Below, in pieces: positions 6,491-16,094 of a stretch of 64,000 nt of DNA. Within the stretch, counting starts at the first letter, position 1. Each line of letters opens with the position of its first letter. Where the stretch lies: the NCBI GenBank assembly GCA_029258795.1, contig JAPDKB010000004.1:32001-96000 (forward strand). The letters are read 5' to 3'. The translations under genes were made by a program, and so were the position numbers. The notes under the pieces are model-generated. The model saw only the letters and a list, made by a program, of their open reading frames with translations. It did no database searches and was not told where the DNA came from. This DNA is from an archaeon. GTDB lineage: Archaea > EX4484-52 > WAPT01.

Positions 6491-7786
6491 TTACCTCTTG
6501 GTCTTCGGTTCTATCTTCTTTATCCCGTTCATATATGGCCACAGAACCTTGGGTATGTCCACACTACCATCCTCGTTCTGGTAGTTTTCAAGAATTGCGC
6601 ACATGGTTCTTTCCGTCGCTATTCCCGTGCAGTTCAGTATGTGAACATAGCCCTTTGGCTTATCCCCTTCTTTCTCCCTCCACTTTATGTTCAGCTTTCT
6701 TGCCTGATAATCCGTGCAGTTGCTCCCGCTGACCACCTCTCGGTATTTCTGCTGTGCTGGAAACCACACCTCTATATCGTACTTTTTGGCAGCGTTATCG
6801 TTCATCTCTCCCGAGCATATGTTCACAACTCTGTAAGGCAAGCCAAGCTCCTGATAGAACTCTTCAGCATTCCTTATCATTTTTTCATGCCAGTCCCAGC
6901 TTTCCTCAGGCAGACAGAACACTATCTGCTCCACCTTGTCGAACTGATGCACCCTGAATATGCCTTTTGTATCCTTACCATGGCTCCCTGCTTCCCTCCT
7001 GAAATTGGTTGAAAAGCCAACGTATTTTAGGGGGAGGTCATCCTTCAGAAAGGTCTCATCCATGTGGTATGCTAAAATGGATTGCTCAGCAGTAGCTATA
7101 AGGTAAGCATCCATACCCTCCACTTTGTAAAGCGTGTCCTGAAAATCAGCCAGTTCTGAAGCCCCCTTCATGGCTTTGCCACTTATCATATATGGCGTCC
7201 ATAATGGAATGAACCCCTTGGCAACGAGCTTCTCAAAGCCATATCTTATCAGCGCCAAATTCAGGAGCACGAGCTCATTTTTCAAATAATAAAACCTAGA
7301 GCCTATCACTTTTGCAGCTCTTTGGACATCGGCAACATCAAGCATCTCCACCAGGTCAGCATGACCCCTTGGCTTAAACTCAAAGCTTTTCGGCTCACCC
7401 CAGGTGCGCACAATCTCGTTATGCTTTTCCTCATCGTCCCCTACAGGCACGCTCTCATGCAATATATTCCCTATCCTGTAGCGCAGCTCATCCCTCTTCT
7501 GAAGAAATTCCTCCACCTTCCTTTCAAGTTCCGCAATCTCTTCCTTCAATTTCTTCATCTTCTCCACAATCTCGGCTGGAACTTCCCTGCCTTCTCTTTT
7601 TAGCTTCGCAACTTCCTGCAGAATTCTGTTTCTTTCCTCCCTTTTCTTCTGCACTTCCTGTAAGCATTCGCGCCATTTAACATCATACTCCAGAACCTTA
7701 TCCACGATGCTGGGGTCCTTGAACCTCTTGCGTTCAGATTCCTTAACAACATCGGGATGTTCCCGTATGAATTCCATGTCCAGCAT
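6491..7786 (-). CDS. serS: Serine-tRNA ligase
   Basis: N-terminal coiled coil, FRREAG...GIFRVHQFDKVE motif 2, SGSNCTDYQAR. Confidence 0.97.
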   Translation of the reverse strand: MLDMEFIREHPDVVKESERKRFKDPSIVDKVLEYDVKWRECLQEVQKKREERNRILQEVAKLKREGREVPAEIVEKMKKLKEEIAELERKVEEFLQKRDELRYRIGNILHESVPVGDDEEKHNEIVRTWGEPKSFEFKPRGHADLVEMLDVADVQRAAKVIGSRFYYLKNELVLLNLALIRYGFEKLVAKGFIPLWTPYMISGKAMKGASELADFQDTLYKVEGMDAYLIATAEQSILAYHMDETFLKDDLPLKYVGFSTNFRREAGSHGKDTKGIFRVHQFDKVEQIVFCLPEESWDWHEKMIRNAEEFYQELGLPYRVVNICSGEMNDNAAKKYDIEVWFPAQQKYREVVSGSNCTDYQARKLNIKWREKEGDKPKGYVHILNCTGIATERTMCAILENYQNEDGSVDIPKVLWPYMNGIKKIEPKTKR

Positions 7787-7834: not shown

Positions 7835-8458
7835 ATGGGTTTGCTCTCCTTCCTTTTTGGAAATAAAAAAGTGGAGAAAGACGTAGAAGAACTTAAAAAT
7901 TCTATGGAATCTTTTAAAGATGACATCAAAAATTTTGCTTTCTCGCTCGCAAAGATGAACGAAAAGATAGTTGAGTTAAATGAAAAGTTTGATGATGAGA
8001 TTGAACAGATTTACGAGAGAATTTCTGAAATTGAAGAAAAAATTAGCATATTGGCTAAATCCACTCGTGTTGGTGTGGAGGCAAAGAAAGAGCTGAAGGA
8101 AGTGAGGGAACAGCTGAGCAAGCTGATTCAAAAGAAAAAGGAAATTAAGAGGGAAAAGCCCGTTCAAGAGATTAATACGGAGGAAACAAGTAAAGTGCAG
8201 GAAATACATGCCTCTGTGAAAGAGGAAATGAGAATGCTGTCTCCTGCTGAAAGAGAAATCCTTTCCGCCTTGCTTTCTTCCGAAATTCCTCTGAGCTACG
8301 AAGAAATAGCCCAGCTTACGGGTAAATCCACAAGTACTGTTAGAGACCATATGAACAACATAAGGAAAAAAACAAATTTGCTGGAAGTGGTAGAAACTCC
8401 GGACAGAAAGAAGCTGTTTAGGATAGCGGTCAAAGCGAAGCAGGAGATCATATTGTAG
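7835..8458 (+). CDS. Coiled-coil plus C-terminal winged-HTH protein with predicted amphipathic N-terminus (MGLLSFLFG)
   Basis: Heptad-rich aa ~15-105; LSPAEREIL...LSYEEIAQLTGKSTSTVRDHMNNIRKK HTH followed by a beta wing. Confidence 0.85.
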   Translation: MGLLSFLFGNKKVEKDVEELKNSMESFKDDIKNFAFSLAKMNEKIVELNEKFDDEIEQIYERISEIEEKISILAKSTRVGVEAKKELKEVREQLSKLIQKKKEIKREKPVQEINTEETSKVQEIHASVKEEMRMLSPAEREILSALLSSEIPLSYEEIAQLTGKSTSTVRDHMNNIRKKTNLLEVVETPDRKKLFRIAVKAKQEIIL

Positions 8459-8461
8459 TTC

Positions 8462-8651
8462 TATCGAAATTTTCGACACATCTTCGACAGACATTCGACA
8501 CATCTTCGACACTGTCGAAATTTTCGACACATAAAAAAGCACAAGCAAAAGATGCTTTGCACATCTGTGTCGAATAACTGTCGAAATTTTCGACACATCT
8601 TCGACAGACATTCGACACATCTTCGACAGACATTCGACACATCTTCGACAC
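8462..8651. repeat. Bipartite iteron-like array of 11-bp units (TTCGACACATC/TTCGACAGACA) with TGTCGAAA-T-TTTCGACA palindromes around a short A-rich spacer
   Basis: 15 TCGA cores at 8464, 8473, 8484, 8495, 8506, 8515, 8524 and 8570, 8581, 8590, 8601, 8612, 8623, 8634, 8645. Confidence 0.95.
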
Positions 8652-8718
8652 TCAAACACAGCCATTTCCTATTAACGTACATATAAGTCCGAATTAGAAA
8701 CAAGGAAGTTCGTTAAAA

Positions 8719-9807
8719 TTACCTTGTGATTTCAACATTCTTTATGAACTCGTAAAGCTCCCTTGCTTTCTTGTTCTTTTCGAAGTGCTCTCTTATCGGT
8801 TTTATGAGCTTTTCCAGATGCGCTGCCACAGCCATCTTCAGATCAAGCGGGTGGAGCTTGCCCTCTCTATAATCCCCTTCAACCTCCTCGTACGAGCCAT
8901 AAACAACGTCTCCTCCGAACTTCTCCGGACGCTCAACCTTGAACTCATCAAACGCTCTGAAAATTATGTGCTTGACGTAATCCATAATCGGATTGTCCTC
9001 AACAACCTTTTCAGGACAGTACGCCTTCCTTATCTTTCTCACGATCTCCTCGCAGCTATCATGAACAAATATGGCTGAATCGGGCTTGCTCTTGCTCATT
9101 TTGGAAGAAATTTCCTTATCTATTTTCTTGTTTTCATCATACCCTTCTCCCTCCTTTGGCCCTTCCAGCCCCATCAGGATATGGTGGCTGACAACTACTG
9201 GCTTTTTCCACCCAAGCTTATCAGCCATCTCCCTTGCAAGCATGTTCACTTTCCTCTGATCCATCCCAAGCTGGCATATGTCAACATCAAGATGGAACAC
9301 GTCAGCACACTGCATTGAAGGATAGAATAGGAATGCCGTCGGATTGTTCTCTCTCCCAACTCTTCCCGCCACCGTCAAACATCTCATGCCCCGCTGAATT
9401 GTGTGGTTTTTCGCTATTAAAATAACCTTTTTCCAGTATTCTGGATCATCAAAATGCTCTTTATGCCACACAACATCAACCTTATTCATGTCAACTCCCG
9501 CAGCTTTCCATACCTCCAGAAAGTATTCTCCACACTTCCTTATTTTTTCAATATCTCCTCCCAGCTTGTTGTTTATCCATGCAAAGCTGTCCGCAAGCAA
9601 AAGCTTGAAGTGCACACCCGCCTTCATGAGATCCCTGAGCAGAAGGGGTCGAAAAACACCAACAGGCAGATGCGCTATACCACTCGGCTCAAAACCATCA
9701 TAAGCCACAATCCTATCTTTCGTTTCAACAAGCTCCCTGAGCTCTTTTTCCGTCACAATCTCTTCTCCCACGCCCGCTATGAGCTGGAAGCGCGTCTCCG
9801 CATCCAT
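8719..9807 (-). CDS. tyrS: Tyrosine-tRNA ligase
   Basis: AYDGFEPSG, QLGMDQRK, KMSKS; start placed at ATG 9807. Confidence 0.96.
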   Translation of the reverse strand: MDAETRFQLIAGVGEEIVTEKELRELVETKDRIVAYDGFEPSGIAHLPVGVFRPLLLRDLMKAGVHFKLLLADSFAWINNKLGGDIEKIRKCGEYFLEVWKAAGVDMNKVDVVWHKEHFDDPEYWKKVILIAKNHTIQRGMRCLTVAGRVGRENNPTAFLFYPSMQCADVFHLDVDICQLGMDQRKVNMLAREMADKLGWKKPVVVSHHILMGLEGPKEGEGYDENKKIDKEISSKMSKSKPDSAIFVHDSCEEIVRKIRKAYCPEKVVEDNPIMDYVKHIIFRAFDEFKVERPEKFGGDVVYGSYEEVEGDYREGKLHPLDLKMAVAAHLEKLIKPIREHFEKNKKARELYEFIKNVEITR

Positions 9808-9847
9808 AAGGTTATGGTTAAGTACTTTACACTTTAAATTTGTTGTC

Positions 9848-10873
9848 ATGATCGAGATTGACGGGAGTTATGGTGAGGGCGGAGGCCAGATAGTTCGGGC
9901 TGCCATGGCTTATTCCTGCCTTACGGGCCAGCCCACAAGAATATTTAACATACGGGCTAAGCGTTCCAATCCCGGGTTAAGGAAGCAACACGCAACAGCG
10001 ATAAAAGTGCTCGCAAATTTATTCAAGGCGGAGGTTGAGGGAGTAAGCGTTGGAAGCAAGGAGGTGACTTTCAAACCCGGGAGTGAGGTGAGGAGTGGTA
10101 ACTTCACTTTTGAAATAGGTAGTGCGGGCTCAATAACTCTGGTTCTTCAGAGCGTTACCTTCGCTTTGATAGGAAGAAAGTGCAAAATAACTCTCACAAT
10201 CAAGGGAGGTACAGATGTGCCCTTCTCCCCAACCTTTGATTATTTCAAGCACTGCTATCTAGCATTACTCTCACGTTTTGGGTACGAGGCAAGCGCTGAA
10301 GTGGCGAGGCGCGGCTATTATCCGGAAGGCGGAGGGGAAGTGAAGTTCACGTTTAGGAAGCATGAACCCCAGCCAATATTGATGAACGATTGTGAAGAAG
10401 ATTTAAAGGTATTCCGCGTGCTCGCTTCCGCTTCCAGCAACCTGCAGAAAGGCAGAGTATGTGAGAGAACGATAAATTCCGCTATTCACCACATCCTGAA
10501 GAACTTTGGAGAGGTGAAGGTTGAGACATGCAGACACTACTCTCAAACCCGATCCACTGGAGCAGCACTTTGTATAGTCGGTTCCGGCGGGGAAAGAATG
10601 ATCGGCGTTGATTTGCTCGGGAAGAGAGGTCTCCCCTCAGAAGAAATCGGGAAGAGGTGTGTTGAACTCATAAAAAATGAAAGTAAAAGTGGGGCATGTG
10701 TGGATTTTCATCTTGCTGACCATCTGGTTCCTTTTCTAGCAACTTGTGGTGGAGAAATAAAAACTTCTCATATAACGGAGCACACCAAGACGATGGTCTG
10801 GCTTGCCAACAGATTCATGGATGGATGCTTGAAAATAGAGGGGAACTTGATAAAATCATTAAATAAGGGTTAG
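9848..10873 (+). CDS. rtcA: RNA 3'-terminal phosphate cyclase
   Basis: MIEIDGSYGEGGGQ start, GGTDV, RRGYYPEGGG, catalytic ITEHTKT. Confidence 0.95.
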   Translation: MIEIDGSYGEGGGQIVRAAMAYSCLTGQPTRIFNIRAKRSNPGLRKQHATAIKVLANLFKAEVEGVSVGSKEVTFKPGSEVRSGNFTFEIGSAGSITLVLQSVTFALIGRKCKITLTIKGGTDVPFSPTFDYFKHCYLALLSRFGYEASAEVARRGYYPEGGGEVKFTFRKHEPQPILMNDCEEDLKVFRVLASASSNLQKGRVCERTINSAIHHILKNFGEVKVETCRHYSQTRSTGAALCIVGSGGERMIGVDLLGKRGLPSEEIGKRCVELIKNESKSGACVDFHLADHLVPFLATCGGEIKTSHITEHTKTMVWLANRFMDGCLKIEGNLIKSLNKG

Positions 10874-10889
10874 CATCAAAATTAAGAAC

Positions 10890-13800
10890 ATGAGGTTAAG
10901 AATGATCTTGCTTTTCACAGTAAGTATCCTCATGCTTTTTATTTGGTCACAGGCATCTCTGGCTATCAACCCAACCCTAATTAAATCACTATCGTCCAAT
11001 CCCAAAGTACATGGTTTGGAGAATCTGGATGTGCTGATGAAAGCCATCTCCAATAATCACAGAAAAGCTAACGGAATTCCCCTCATTCTTAAATTGAATG
11101 GCAACGTGGATGAAAACCTCCTGAAAAGAAAGGGAATAATCGTGAAGAGACGCATACCAAAATTGAATGTTCTGATTGTTGAGGCACCACCAGAAGCATT
11201 GGAATACCTCACATCACTACCTGAAATAAACGCGGTCCGCATACCACGACAGATACCTCTCACCTTACACGAGAGCGTGCCTTTAATTCGGGCCGACAAA
11301 TTATGGAACGTCCAACTAAACGGAATGAATCTAACGGGAAAAGGAATTACCGTCTGTGTTATTGATAGCGGTATTGATTACACACATCCTGCTCTCAGCA
11401 ATTGCACCACAGCATATCAGCCGGAAAATGATAGCGTAACCGTTGTGCCATATACCCTTAACATAACCCCAACAGCCACGCCCTTAATTCAAAATCACAC
11501 AATCGAAATAGAGAATTTCTCCGCATACTCCATTCACATAAAGGAGCTGCATCTTGGTTGGGATGACTATCTCTACATCTATGATGAGAACGGCACAGTT
11601 GTTCGGGAATATAACTGGGAAGACGATGTGGATGTTTGGACTCCACCAATAACAGGCAGGAACGTGACGGTGGGGGTGGTGATAAACGATAGCGATTCCA
11701 GCGTTTACATAGATATGGTGGCCAACGGCACAATGATCCCCAACATAAGCGTATGTCCAAGAATCGTTGCGGGTTACGATTTCGTTAATGACGACCCATT
11801 ACCCTATGATGATGTCGATCACGGAACCATGGTGGCAGGAATAATAGGGGCTAACGGCACGATAAAAGGTGTTGCTCCTGACGTCAATTTTGTGATAATA
11901 AAGGCTTGTTATCCTTTTCTATGGCTGGGGGTGTGCGATGAAGCAGCCATCATAAATGGAATATATTATTGTGTTGAAAACGCAACAAAGTATAACATCT
12001 CGGTCATTTCCATGAGTTTGGGGGGAGGATCTTTCTCAACTTATTGTGATGATTACAGCGAGGAGATGACTCAAGCCATAAGAGATGCGTTAAAAAACAA
12101 CATAACTGTGGTTGTTGCTGCAGGAAATGATGGGTATGCTACCAACATTTCTCATCCTGCATGCATCAACGGCACAATTCCTGTAGGGGCAACAACGAAA
12201 ACTGACGAGATAGCTTATTTTTCCTCCAGATCTCCAAACTTCGAATACTTTGTTTTTGCCCCAGGACAGGACATTTTAACCACAACCCCTACCTATCACA
12301 CAACAGGTTATTATGGAAAGGGAGACGGAACTTCCTTTGCAACTCCACACGTGAGTGGTGTCGTTGCTCTAATGTATCAGTTTTACCGTCTGCTTTACTC
12401 AACCTTACCCACCCCACAATTAATTAGGAGAAAGCTCGTTGAGACGGGCGTGCCAATAATGGATAGTGCTACCTCACACGTTTATCCAAGGGTGGACGCA
12501 TACGCAGCGGTCATGTCACTAGACACAATACCACCAACAGTGTCAATCATAGAACCACCAAAAGATATTGTTACAAACAACACCAATCTAACGTTTTTTG
12601 TGAAGCTAACGGATAATTTTGCGCTGAAAAATGCCTCCGCACACTTACTCTTCAACGGAACCCGCACCGAGCTTAAGAACTGGAATTTTGAGGAGAACAT
12701 CAACAGCACGACCATAAATTTTACTGTGGAGTTTACATCTGATGGAACACGCATAATCAACGTGTCAGCGTGTGACTATTCTTCCTGCACATCTTCATTA
12801 CGCACAGTGGTGGTGGACACAACACCTCCAGCAATACATCTCAACATGTCTAATGGCACTACCATCAACACCTCGACTGTGGTTGTCAGCGTTAAATGCA
12901 CGGATTTAACCCCCATAACCAGTATGGAATACTGTCTGGATGAATACTGCACACCGTTAACCTGTACCAACGGAAACGCGCAATTCGTCCTTAACAATCT
13001 AACAGACGGGAATCACCAGCTTGTCATGCGCGCGGAAGACTTTATAGGGAACAGCAACACGATCAACATAACCTTCAGGGTTAAGGTACCTCCCTACATT
13101 CTTGTTTACATTAATGAGAGCGAAAGCATCATACCAACCAATAACGTTTCAGTGTTCATTGAGGGTTCAGACAACACAGAAATCAAAGATATGGTTTTGG
13201 TTGTGGATAACAGCACGTATGAACACATTTTAATTAACGCAAGCAGCGTGAATTTAAATTACACTTTTTCATTGCCGGATGGAGGGCACAACATAACCGT
13301 GTGTGTTAATGACAGCGTGAATTTGTCTAGCTGTTCATTTTTAGAGGTGAAGGTGGATGGCAATCCCCCAGTTATCTTGCTCGTGTCTCCTCAGAACACC
13401 ACTTACACCAACTCAACCGCCATCCCACTACAATTCCAAGTTAGCGACCGACCATTTAACATCATAAACTGCAATTCAACCATCGAAAGATTCAATGGAA
13501 GTGGTTGGGTCGTGCAACACAAATTTTCCTTGAGCTCAAATGAAACGCCAATAAATTATAGCGATACCTTAACGATGGGTGATGGCATCTTTAACCTCAC
13601 AATAAGTTGTGTGGATCCCGCAACACACATTACCTCCATCAAAGCCAACTTCACCATCGACACCCTTCCTCCATCGATCAGCATCTCCTGGAAGAAAGGA
13701 AATTTGGTGGAGCACACACTGTACTTGAATGAGAGTGAACTTGAGTTTAACTTGAGCGTTAACGATCATGGTACTGGCATTAAAGAAGTAGAGATTGTTA

Positions 13801-15038
13801 AACTTGCTGGAAATTCAACGGAAGCAATAATCAACGACACATATCACAATTTAACCACGGAGAAGCGTTACAATTTATCTTTGATGGTGGAGCAGGAAAA
13901 CACAAGTTTAACGGTGGTTGTGAAGGATAGCATCAGATCCGTGAACGAGAGCTTTTACATCGTAACGGATACTTTGCCCCCACAAATCGTTATGCTTAGT
14001 GTGCCCTCAAAAGTTGCTTTAAATTCGGATATAGAAAGGCTGGCAACATGTGAGGCAGAAGATAACGAAACAGGTATATTTTTGGTTGAGATTTATGGAG
14101 ATACAACCACTACAGGCAACAAAACATTGGTGTGCTGTGCTTACGATTACGCCCTAAACCGCGTGTGTAACGAAACCTATTATTACGTTTATGCACCTAA
14201 ACCCAAAAAATCCAGTTCAACCACCCTCACCACGAGCTCCACTACCACAACCATTCAGATTGTTGAAGAGGAAGAGGAAAAGGAGGAGGTTCTGATTTTG
14301 GAAGATGCAGTTGTCATTGACATTTCAACAAAAGGAAGTGAAAAGGAAATCGATCTTTCGAATCAATCAATCCTGCCGTTCATCAAAAAATTAAGAGTGA
14401 AATCAGAAAAAGGAGTTGAACTCGAGATAGCTCCTGTGCAAGTTCAAAACGAAAGTGTGATTGAGGCTTTTGTTATCAACGCTTCCGGTTCTTCCGAGAT
14501 AACAAGTATCAATCTAACACTCTCTCTTCAAGAACTTCTTGAAGAGGGGGGAGATGTTATAATAGTTGTGAATGAGAAGGAAAATCACAAGGAATTGAAT
14601 GTTGATGCTGACACGCATTCAACAGTAGGTCTGGAAGTTGTTCCTCCAGCCACCATCACCATCCTCAAGAAAAAAACCACACAACTCACATATTATGGAG
14701 AGGAAGTGCAACCCGTGGAAGAGCAGTCCGAGATAAAAACAACCCAAACCAGACCCGATGATGAGGAACAACAACCCTCCAATTCCATTCTCTGGCTGTT
14801 AATGTTGGTTTGTTTTGTTTCCACACTTGTTCTTATAAAATTGTGGTCGCGCCATCTGAAAGAAAAACAGAAAAAACAGATTATTCGTGATATGGAAAGG
14901 ATCAACCTCCTTCGTGCAAAGATGGAGGAATTGCTGAGCTCGAAAGATATAGCTGAGGAGGATCGTAAAAGACTGGAGAGTTTAAGGAATGAAACAGAGA
15001 AGTTGTACAAATTCATGAAAAAGTCATTAGATAAATGA
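10890..15038 (+). CDS. Large membrane-anchored S8 (subtilisin-like) serine protease with Ig-like repeats
   Basis: Signal peptide; catalytic triad VIDSG / HGTMVAG / GTSFATPHV; repeated DTxPP Ig-like boundaries; many N-x-S/T sequons; Thr-rich linker; C-terminal TM helix. Confidence 0.92.
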   Translation: MRLRMILLFTVSILMLFIWSQASLAINPTLIKSLSSNPKVHGLENLDVLMKAISNNHRKANGIPLILKLNGNVDENLLKRKGIIVKRRIPKLNVLIVEAPPEALEYLTSLPEINAVRIPRQIPLTLHESVPLIRADKLWNVQLNGMNLTGKGITVCVIDSGIDYTHPALSNCTTAYQPENDSVTVVPYTLNITPTATPLIQNHTIEIENFSAYSIHIKELHLGWDDYLYIYDENGTVVREYNWEDDVDVWTPPITGRNVTVGVVINDSDSSVYIDMVANGTMIPNISVCPRIVAGYDFVNDDPLPYDDVDHGTMVAGIIGANGTIKGVAPDVNFVIIKACYPFLWLGVCDEAAIINGIYYCVENATKYNISVISMSLGGGSFSTYCDDYSEEMTQAIRDALKNNITVVVAAGNDGYATNISHPACINGTIPVGATTKTDEIAYFSSRSPNFEYFVFAPGQDILTTTPTYHTTGYYGKGDGTSFATPHVSGVVALMYQFYRLLYSTLPTPQLIRRKLVETGVPIMDSATSHVYPRVDAYAAVMSLDTIPPTVSIIEPPKDIVTNNTNLTFFVKLTDNFALKNASAHLLFNGTRTELKNWNFEENINSTTINFTVEFTSDGTRIINVSACDYSSCTSSLRTVVVDTTPPAIHLNMSNGTTINTSTVVVSVKCTDLTPITSMEYCLDEYCTPLTCTNGNAQFVLNNLTDGNHQLVMRAEDFIGNSNTINITFRVKVPPYILVYINESESIIPTNNVSVFIEGSDNTEIKDMVLVVDNSTYEHILINASSVNLNYTFSLPDGGHNITVCVNDSVNLSSCSFLEVKVDGNPPVILLVSPQNTTYTNSTAIPLQFQVSDRPFNIINCNSTIERFNGSGWVVQHKFSLSSNETPINYSDTLTMGDGIFNLTISCVDPATHITSIKANFTIDTLPPSISISWKKGNLVEHTLYLNESELEFNLSVNDHGTGIKEVEIVKLAGNSTEAIINDTYHNLTTEKRYNLSLMVEQENTSLTVVVKDSIRSVNESFYIVTDTLPPQIVMLSVPSKVALNSDIERLATCEAEDNETGIFLVEIYGDTTTTGNKTLVCCAYDYALNRVCNETYYYVYAPKPKKSSSTTLTTSSTTTTIQIVEEEEEKEEVLILEDAVVIDISTKGSEKEIDLSNQSILPFIKKLRVKSEKGVELEIAPVQVQNESVIEAFVINASGSSEITSINLTLSLQELLEEGGDVIIVVNEKENHKELNVDADTHSTVGLEVVPPATITILKKKTTQLTYYGEEVQPVEEQSEIKTTQTRPDDEEQQPSNSILWLLMLVCFVSTLVLIKLWSRHLKEKQKKQIIRDMERINLLRAKMEELLSSKDIAEEDRKRLESLRNETEKLYKFMKKSLDK

Positions 15039-15992
15039 ATCCAGTATCACTTCACCTATTTCCTTTGTGGACTGAGAAATTCTGCTCAAATTTTCCGTTA
15101 TGTTGGCTATGTCAGATCTAATGTCCGCTGGCACAACACTTAAATTTTCTCTCAGGTTTTCCAGATCAACTTTGGAATATCTTGTGCTTTCATCCACAAC
15201 ATAGTTGGCAAGGTTTCTGTCGTTTTCGCCAAGGGCAAGCGGAATTTTCTTTATTATCTCCGCCAACCTGTTGAGCGGTTGTTGCAGAAGATGGGAGAGT
15301 TCCGCCTTTTCCATAATCTGTATGGTGTGGGTGGCTATGCTCTCAAGACAATCTCCAACACTTTCCAGTTTTTGCAGAACAGAACTGTAACCAAACAGTT
15401 TGATGAATGTTCTCATGCTCGGAAAGCTCTCATATCCCTTGATATTTAGCTGTCTTCTCGCCAAAAGAACCATTTTATCCAGATCATCATCCCGTTGGAC
15501 AACATCTCGTAAGAGAGATGCGTCATTCTTTATTATCGCTTCAATGAGGGAAGATATCATCCAGAGAATGGATGCGCAACACCTAGAGATCATATCCTCA
15601 AGATTCATTTTTTCTGGCCCGACCATAACCTTTATGATCAGCTTATTATTTTCCTCCAGCAGATCTATCCCGAAAAGTATGGACTCCACACTGCTCTTGA
15701 TCTTTTTCAGCACATCCCACGAATCAAGGCCGGTAACCTCTATTTTATCGTATCCTTGAACGTATTTCGCAACTATTTCCCTTACCACCCATTCCACATT
15801 TCTGTCAAATTTAACAAAACACTCCCTCACCATCTTTCTGTCCTTTCTAACAACAACATGCTCGCTTTCTGGCGTGTAGTTTACCACCAACATGTCCCCA
15901 TTCTTTATTCCATGGCTATCCACCCATTCTTTTGGAAGAGAAACGACCAGTGTTGTTCTTCCAAGCTTCTGCACCTTTCTTCTTTCCTCCAT
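15027..15992 (-). CDS. AbrB-domain/PhoU family phosphate uptake regulator
   Basis: RKVQKLGRTTLVVSLPKEWV AbrB N-terminus, then PhoU-like helical repeats (RDDDLD, LESVGD). Confidence 0.85.
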   Translation of the reverse strand: MEERRKVQKLGRTTLVVSLPKEWVDSHGIKNGDMLVVNYTPESEHVVVRKDRKMVRECFVKFDRNVEWVVREIVAKYVQGYDKIEVTGLDSWDVLKKIKSSVESILFGIDLLEENNKLIIKVMVGPEKMNLEDMISRCCASILWMISSLIEAIIKNDASLLRDVVQRDDDLDKMVLLARRQLNIKGYESFPSMRTFIKLFGYSSVLQKLESVGDCLESIATHTIQIMEKAELSHLLQQPLNRLAEIIKKIPLALGENDRNLANYVVDESTRYSKVDLENLRENLSVVPADIRSDIANITENLSRISQSTKEIGEVILDSFI

Positions 15993-16094
15993 ACTACCCC
16001 TTCGGTATATGTTTGTATATACCACTCTTAATTAACTTTAAATATTTAACTTGGATTAGTGATTTTGTCTTTCCACCCCGTTCTTTGGTGATTT

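Follow-up and report, generated by a model that had tools for sequence, protein, structure and literature searches.

What is the dense array of short repeats that lies between a gene for a small winged helix-turn-helix (wHTH) protein and tyrS in the genome of a DPANN archaeon, and what does it do? We analysed a window of 64,000 nucleotides (C4:32001-96000; positions given without a contig refer to it) from a source genome, G000, of 1,168,407 bp in 23 contigs that is 96% complete. A preliminary description of the window had proposed that the array at 8462-8651 (C4:40462-40651) is a replication origin without origin recognition boxes (ORBs) or a centromere, and that it forms an undescribed module with the adjacent wHTH protein, here called P0001. 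We consider it highly probable that these repeats are the cognate sites of P0001 rather than an ORB origin. We read the array as a platform private to P0001 because it occupies a single locus, is under purifying selection, is linked to the gene, appears to co-vary with the protein from lineage to lineage and has no promoter to control. By analogy with known systems, this cis-linked binding platform may be a centromere-like site or a site that anchors the chromosome, possibly to the membrane, a function to which we give slightly less than an even chance.

The array is divided into two blocks and contains the heptamer TTCGACA in 14 exact copies and an imperfect one. From left to right, the exact copies are oriented ++++-+--++++++, and the imperfect copy, the inverted TATCGAA, stands at 8462. 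Each block opens with an inverted pair and continues with direct units at 11-bp phase. Block A (8462-8529) comprises the imperfect inverted pair (8462-8478), direct TTCGACA units at 8472, 8483, 8494 and 8505 in exact 11-bp steps, and the perfect palindrome TGTCGAAATTTTCGACA (8513-8529). Block B (8566-8651) comprises inverted units at 8568 and 8579, the second of which builds a palindrome (8579-8595) identical to that of block A, and six direct units (8589-8644), again at 11-bp phase. Because the 4-nt linkers between direct units alternate between CATC and GACA, the array has a higher-order period of 22 bp. The spacer (8530-8565) holds an A-run and a GCAAA/TTTGC mini-hairpin at 8545-8560. The preliminary description had this architecture right: the two blocks, the 11-bp phasing and 22-bp super-period, the two perfect palindromes and the imperfect one, and the mini-hairpin were all recovered. 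Its A-rich spacer of about 35 bp was correct in length (36 bp), but the A-richness is slight (64% A+T, counted by hand, vs 57% for the contig). An identity as clustered regularly interspaced short palindromic repeats (CRISPR) was rejected, as the units measure 11 bp and are not separated by unique spacers.

The heptamers are concentrated at this one place. The window holds 18 exact copies, 14 of them within 8472-8650; dinucleotide-preserving shuffles of the window (n = 100) held a mean of 7.31 and a maximum of 16, and none reached 18. In the whole assembly of 1,168,407 bp there are 103 heptamers and a single cluster, at the array, where 0.017 heptamers are expected per 190 bp (Poisson P(≥14) = 1.5e-36). 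This was the outcome of a genome-wide scan for TTCGACA clusters that had been suggested as a check. When two mismatches were allowed, the genome-wide search returned no further credible palindrome or phased pair, and phased heptamer pairs are confined to the array locus in G000 and in its congeners G001 and G002. An assembly artefact, raised earlier as a possible refutation, does not account for the array: contigs from the runs of two other studies (X2 and X3) cover 8464-8608 with 0 differences, and two sister species carry the array. The runs with contigs that match the array are hydrothermal-vent metagenomes. In a further run, X1, one contig joins 8536 to 8684 through 19 other letters and lacks the spacer and block B; this variant coexists with contigs bearing the window's version of the array.

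The array is under strong purifying selection. We compared it with the congeners G001 and G002 by aligning five blocks from G000 and these two species. Both congeners carry the array, which disposes of the earlier concern that it might be absent from close relatives. G001 keeps the order serS-gene-array-tyrS, and its array consists of two blocks of 75 bp whose heptamers and phasing match those of G000. The G002 assembly is interrupted within the array, so that C2 ends in one block and C9 in the other, which adjoins tyrS; because arrays of this kind break short-read assemblies, they are probably under-represented in metagenome-assembled genomes. Every heptamer column of the alignment is invariant. 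We attribute this to selection because G000 and G001 are identical at 63 of the 74 positions of block A and 60 of the 74 of block B, whereas their four-fold degenerate sites are saturated, with 39 of 121 identical in serS and 37 of 111 in tyrS (32-33%). The same two genomes are identical at 27 of 56 spacer positions in a global alignment and at 41 of 76 positions in the 3' flank. The P0001 proteins of the congeners are about 48-50% identical.

The same comparison bears on the idea that the region is a structured RNA, a 3' untranslated region or a terminator structure, and not protein-binding DNA. The plus strand of the array folds at -53.2 kcal/mol (z = -5.08), and 0 of 200 shuffles fold equally well. 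Such a fold is, however, a trivial by-product of inverted repeats. In G001 and G002 the second palindrome has shrunk to a half-site, and the long pairing is lost yet every heptamer is kept; the lineage-specific motifs described below have no common structure. At the gathering score, Rfam found one tRNA and nothing else in the window, and nothing credible within 8350-8800 (best E 0.44). We regard an RNA element as extremely improbable.

The position of the array speaks to a second alternative, an ordinary regulatory element. The gene for P0001 (7835-8458, plus strand, 207 amino acids, from the open reading frame (ORF) and its translation) is divergent from serS (6491-7786, minus strand; Pfam tRNA-synt_2b and Seryl_tRNA_N) and convergent with tyrS (8719-9849, minus strand; NCBIfam NF006330, 380.5 bits vs a cut-off of 220). 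Because the P0001 gene and tyrS converge, the array is flanked by two 3' ends. No heptamer lies in the 48-bp divergent promoter region between serS and the P0001 gene or anywhere between 6943 and 8472, and therefore none lies in the gene's own promoter. Both facts argue against a promoter role. The regulatory alternative would make the array a MarR/ArsR-like operator or titration site, or a roadblock or insulator between the wHTH and tyrS transcripts. It draws on the type of DNA-binding domain, which is that of transcription regulators, and on the many such factors that bind palindromes beside their own gene. Against it, there is no gene start to control at the array, 14 phased sites far exceed what an operator needs, and the long coiled coil and conserved N-terminal peptide of P0001 are foreign to such regulators. 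Nor is there a regulon, because no other sites occur in the genome. We consider a regulatory element rather unlikely.

P0001 itself combines a wHTH domain with parts that suggest assembly and attachment. Its N-terminus is a hydrophobic and then basic peptide, MGLLSFLFGNKK. In the AlphaFold2 (AF2) model (mean predicted local distance difference test (pLDDT) 79.1), residues 9-74 and 78-106 are predicted helices of a hairpin or coiled coil, residues 108-124 a disordered linker and residues 126-206 the wHTH. Pfam gave HTH matches and no others, at residues 129-186, and the best Foldseek matches of the model were MarR/ArsR-type wHTH chains (E from 2.8e-4). Searches of Pfam, NCBIfam, PHROGs and PDB sequences returned generic HTH models only; the sole family-specific cut-off reached in Pfam and NCBIfam was that of Sigma70_r4_2 (25.8 bits, cut-off 25.7). 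No ATPase or helicase-loading domain was found with Pfam or NCBIfam. The HTH part weakly matches a phage 'replication protein' family, phrog_17376 (E 1.8e-5). A homodimer prediction scored 0.16 (mark 0.42) and weighs neither way.

The N-terminal peptide is a recurrent feature of the protein family. Almost all members start with hydrophobic or aromatic residues followed by Lys or Arg (e.g., MGFFDIFKK, MFWLFKKRDD and MGLLSFLFGNKK). We counted sequences with ≥4 hydrophobic residues in positions 2-9 and ≥2 Lys or Arg in positions 7-16, and found them in 80 of 138 family representatives vs 66 of 737 control ORFs of G000. The P0001 peptide is unique within G000. The peptide is similar to residues 1-12 of Escherichia coli MinE in the K-12 record (MALLDFFLSRKK vs MGLLDFF-SRKN in L006), with no similarity beyond them. 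These MinE residues are its membrane-targeting sequence. Homology of the N-terminal part to PspA/ESCRT-III or to MinE was considered and rejected, with no Pfam or PDB sequence match. The Dip system was also set aside as a relative, since its proteins, as far as the available part of that report describes them, are unrelated (PMC13228585).

Homologues of P0001 also adjoin arrays, with other motifs. We built a family profile from 11 members and searched it in 1.84 billion proteins, which yielded 799 representatives at E ≤ 1e-3 and 131 at E ≤ 1e-10. The ESM-Atlas neighbours of P0001 are unnamed archaeal clusters, most often from Nanobdellota. The host's GTDB phylum, which belongs to DPANN and comprises one order with 42 genomes, has a family member (E ≤ 1e-6) in 18 of them, including 8 of the 10 high-quality genomes, each of which carries one copy. 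The pairing of gene and array recurs in 5 genera with lineage-specific motifs. The array downstream of the g8 gene is built from TTAATCGA, that of the g6 gene from GATAGTATCG and GGTTACC, and that of the g4 gene from ACATAACTA, and the g3, g10 and g12 genes are followed by palindromes of the GTT(A/G)TAACA type. In sister lineages different array motifs are paired with different recognition helices. Because homologous genes in other genera adjoin arrays of other motifs, the protein and its binding-site array co-vary, as judged from the sequences. This pairing in 5 genera and the constraint in the congeners bear out the proposal that the array and the adjacent wHTH gene are one module.

We located the densest repeats around the family genes at 18 loci, of which 3 with <300 bp of downstream sequence were set aside; the remaining 15 have ≥1.3 kb. 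The densest-repeat window starts 2-348 bp past the stop codon in 10 of these 15 loci, a count that is descriptive because the loci are related to one another and include near-duplicates. A synteny check proposed beforehand showed that families f1 and f6 retain the order serS-gene-array-tyrS-rtcA and that f8, f4 and f3 do not; serS synteny is kept in G001, G007 and G041, and the SerS proteins of f1 and f6 are about 50% identical. We also noted stretches poor in ORFs after the family gene that are unusual for genomes so compact. In G011, a stretch of 1.86 kb behind the module's palindrome cluster (L045 8856-10717, contig C11) has no ORF of ≥70 amino acids and is 50% T, and such stretches span 1.0-1.6 kb in G004, G007, G016 and G026 and 0.4-0.6 kb in G009 and G014.

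This genomic context also allows a third alternative to be weighed, that the module was left behind by an integrated plasmid, virus or other selfish element that brought a Rep or partition gene together with its iterons. The iteron-like architecture and the weak PHROG matches fit such an origin, as does a genomic context in f8, f4 and f3 that is unlike that in f1 and f6. The module, however, sits between housekeeping genes (TopA and SerS on one side, TyrS and RtcA on the other), and the order serS-module-tyrS-rtcA has been kept across two families at the SerS divergence given above. Its G+C content agrees with that of the flanks, we saw no integrase, tRNA target or second element gene nearby, and a single copy in 8 of 10 high-quality genomes of the phylum is at odds with a mobile remnant. 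We judge this explanation very improbable.

A distant subfamily, sampled as alignment A3 plus 57 metagenome loci, shows a different arrangement. By a strict k-mer test, few of the 57 loci repeat a 7-mer ≥4 times within 300 bp downstream of the gene. The motif CGTTCA[AT], picked post hoc from these same loci, has 230 copies in 42 distinct coding sequences (9.35 per kb) vs 43 copies outside them (0.29 per kb). The copies lie in the part that codes for the linker, with 3-8 per gene (L053-L105; e.g., L062 2685-2840). They are spread over the three reading frames as 80:69:81, and 41 of the 42 coding sequences have ≥3 copies in ≥2 frames. A repeat that occurs in every reading frame is under constraint as DNA, so in this subfamily the coding sequence of the gene itself seems to contain the site array. 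parS sites can lie within parB genes, an arrangement that the embedded CGTTCA[AT] arrays mirror.

Further repeats were observed near distant members. At L056, L064, L071 and L072 the convergent downstream gene holds runs of (GATT)n, (GAGT)n or (GAAT)n in its coding part, about 170-700 bp downstream of the family gene. Between the two convergent genes, the same-strand motif AAAAGTGAG(R)GTT, also chosen post hoc, occurs at 6.2 per kb vs 0.68 elsewhere. G013, which has no family match, carries a positional analogue between serS and tyrS (L111 2395-3207, G013:C1). The N-terminus (MARGFLERLF..) and coiled coil of its product are similar to those of the family, but the C-terminal wHTH is a different one, and just 37 bp separate the gene from tyrS. 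Its coding part contains 14.8 copies of a 5-bp-period repeat, AACTC (2752-2823). An hhalign comparison of this analogue with the family profile did not establish homology (probability 2.9%).

Could the array nevertheless be where replication starts, as first proposed? This is unlikely, because 21 kb to its left the genome has a canonical Orc1/Cdc6 gene accompanied by ORB-like inverted repeats. The gene (C4:18147-19433) scores 430 bits and has a Cdc6_C domain. TIGR02928 exceeds its cut-off at C4:18210-19298 and at C2:125353-126306, the latter being a second Orc1 paralogue. In the gap upstream of orc1, inverted repeats surround an AT-rich stretch (C4:19481-19583), and we take them to be ORB or mini-ORB-like. 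The ORB-like pattern drawn from these repeats, TCCAnnnGAAAT[GC]A, was located at 8 places in the genome, five of which are C4:11668, 11750, 19481, 19560 and 19583, and several of the sites, including C4:11668 and 11750, bear G/C-strings. Within the array the pattern does not occur, in agreement with the preliminary description, which saw no ORB G-string there. The orc1 region (C4:19434-19610) and a second pair of sites 8 kb to its left (C4:11668-11776) are likely the canonical origin region, which is possibly bipartite. The array lies 21-29 kb to the right of the orc1/ORB-like sites, which fall outside the window. It has no inverted ORB elements, no adjacent orc1/cdc6 and no AT-rich unwinding element.

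A second, Orc1-independent origin with the wHTH protein as its dedicated initiator would be a different matter. Cis-linkage and co-variation are also typical of initiator/origin pairs, stretches of 0.4-1.9 kb poor in ORFs follow the gene in other genera, and the HTH part has its weak match to the 'replication protein' family phrog_17376. The cumulative purine skew of C4, suggested earlier as a check, is lowest at 42 kb, close to the array (40.5 kb). This part of the check is favourable, but there are other minima, and GC and purine skew on the contig are dominated by local gene orientation. The preliminary description had also cited a switch from mostly minus-strand genes on the left to mostly plus-strand genes on the right as weak support for an origin. 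The switch is partial: tyrS (8719-9849) and an ORF at 15027-16025 are on the minus strand. The spacer, at 36 bp and 64% A+T, is not an unwinding element, being unconserved and missing in the X1 variant, and P0001 lacks an ATPase or helicase-loading domain. The array of the distant subfamily seems to sit inside coding sequence, and the Orc1/Cdc6 gene with ORB-like repeats around an AT-rich stretch is close by. An additional origin of this kind is in our view distinctly unlikely.

We infer that P0001 binds DNA, oligomerises on the array, contacts a membrane or a partner and plays a role in segregation. In the mechanism that we propose, a single wHTH would occupy each heptamer. A wHTH dimer would be nucleated on the inverted pairs, whose half-site centres are 10 bp apart, and the direct units at 11-bp phase would place additional P0001 subunits along the same side of the double helix. 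As the oligomerising element, the helical hairpin or coiled coil would join the subunits, and the hydrophobic-then-basic N-terminal peptide would tie the nucleoprotein complex to the membrane or to a partner. A single such locus, 21 kb from the Orc1/ORB origin, could then act as a centromere-like or anchoring site in a small DPANN cell. More tentatively still, we suggest that DPANN archaea may have a system with no motor gene in its neighbourhood, in which a membrane-tethered wHTH protein polymerises on a private cis array that serves as a single centromere or anchor near the origin. That array would lie directly downstream of the gene, as in G000, or within its own linker-coding sequence and across three frames, as in the sister subfamily.

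Several observations count against the centromere-like or anchoring function. No NTPase gene adjoins the module: the three MinD/ParA-like ORFs are on other contigs, and PF13614 and PF01656 matches above cut-off are on C5, C1, C6 and C2, none of them beside the module. The helical hydrophobic moment of the N-terminal peptide is low (0.17), as is AF2 confidence at residues 1-5 (pLDDT <50), and for these reasons the peptide may be a partner-binding motif, not a membrane anchor. Proximity to the origin rests on two related genomes, G000 (module 21 kb from orc1) and G011 (93 kb); elsewhere orc1 and the module are on separate contigs. The two-block layout is not obligatory, because the X1 contig lacks the spacer and block B. 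In 24 of the 42 genomes of the phylum, many of them fragmented, and in 2 of the 10 of high quality among them, there is no family match at E ≤ 1e-6. The densest repeats lie elsewhere than just past the stop codon in 5 of the 15 loci, mostly of family f3, which has looser repeats or a coding region that is itself repetitive. The motifs of the distant subfamily were chosen after the fact, although the frame argument is independent of that choice. The remaining probability belongs to an explanation not yet conceived.

The wider neighbourhood reads, from left to right, CDC48, RadB, a PyrE-like gene, topoisomerase IA, SerS on the minus strand, P0001 on the plus strand, the array, TyrS on the minus strand, RtcA on the plus strand, a subtilase and V-ATPase subunit I; serS is the left border of the conserved synteny. 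The subtilase gene (10890-15038, plus strand; Peptidase_S8) encodes 1382 amino acids with an immunoglobulin-like domain, which is large for a 1.17-Mb genome. An ORF of 229 amino acids on the minus strand (7976-8665) runs antisense to P0001 and crosses the array, where it is open owing to the repeats. It is conserved only as the antisense of the P0001 gene and is probably not a gene.

The claim that the module is undescribed stands: in curated families (Pfam, NCBIfam and PHROGs), PDB sequences and the literature we found no description of the P0001 family or its arrays. In a preprint on complete Nanobdellota genomes, a term search of the portion of the text that was available gave no occurrence of iteron, centromere or segregation (10.64898/2026.05.13.725050), and a full-text literature search found nothing in print on DPANN chromosome segregation. 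DPANN cells are tiny and their genomes reduced. The locus offers a concrete pair of one small protein and one 190-bp DNA site, with natural specificity variants in sister lineages. Its cis-linked, apparently co-evolving arrangement and the putative arrays embedded across three frames bear on the evolution of protein-DNA specificity pairs.

We compared the module with known systems that join a DNA-binding protein to repeated sites. The Rep proteins of iteron plasmids have two winged-helix domains (WH1-WH2), and their iterons lie beside a DNA unwinding element. P0001, in contrast, has a single wHTH after a coiled coil and no Rep match above cut-off, and its array has no unwinding element and stands in a housekeeping context. 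TubR of type III partition systems is a winged-HTH centromere-binding protein that polymerises on iterons. The pairing of a wHTH protein with iterons is shared with TubR/tubC, polymerisation of P0001 being putative. Unlike TubR, P0001 has no adjacent TubZ-like GTPase gene and no sequence match to that system, and it adds a coiled coil and an N-terminal peptide. In type II partition systems, ParR has a ribbon-helix-helix fold, the actin-like ParM is encoded in the operon, and parC is located upstream of parMR, where it overlaps the promoter. P0001 differs in its wHTH, in its array, which is downstream in a tail-to-tail gap, in the lack of an actin-like ParM nearby and in its chromosomal location. 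The likeness to parC that the preliminary description pointed out therefore holds for the geometry, with two blocks and exact 11-bp phasing, and not for the protein, the position of the array or an adjacent motor gene. As in parC/ParR of plasmid R1, to judge from the available part of that account, two blocks of helically phased iterons of about 11 bp are separated by a spacer and are predicted to carry a co-operative protein array (PMC2241845).

Archaeal systems offer a more general parallel, as the repeats of Orc1/Cdc6-ORB origins and of SegAB likewise adjoin the gene of their binding protein in the accessible text (PMC8682754). They differ in that the P0001 array has no ORB motif or G-string and lies 21-29 kb from the ORB sites. 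No SegA/ParA gene is adjacent, and by Pfam or NCBIfam P0001 is not an Orc1 and is not SegB-like, a comparison that addresses SegB indirectly. In a test for ParB-type features (ParBc/CTPase), P0001 matched generic HTH families only (Pfam, NCBIfam).

The predicted design of the system has its nearest counterparts in bacteria: RicO, RocS and Noc for the tether, and ParR/parC and TubR/tubC for the iteron geometry. RocS and Noc (PMC4331003) are similar tethers as portrayed in the part of the source available, and the N-terminal peptide of P0001 may be of the same kind. RicO of Staphylococcus aureus is described, in the available portion of the report, as a protein with a DNA-binding domain, a coiled coil and an amphipathic helix that anchors origins to the membrane for segregation; its sites are specific and flank oriC, and nine single sites are dispersed over about 700 kb (10.64898/2026.03.06.710092). 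On that account P0001 and RicO/ricS differ in several respects. There is no sequence relation, the order of parts is inverted (peptide N-terminal and wHTH C-terminal in P0001), the host is an archaeon, and one dense 190-bp array directly after the P0001 gene replaces the dispersed RicO sites. As far as the same portion goes, P0001 would share with RicO the combination of sequence-specific DNA recognition, a coiled coil and a short peptide predicted to bind membranes, and may share with it specific sites in an origin-proximal part of the chromosome; neither has a dedicated motor gene adjacent.

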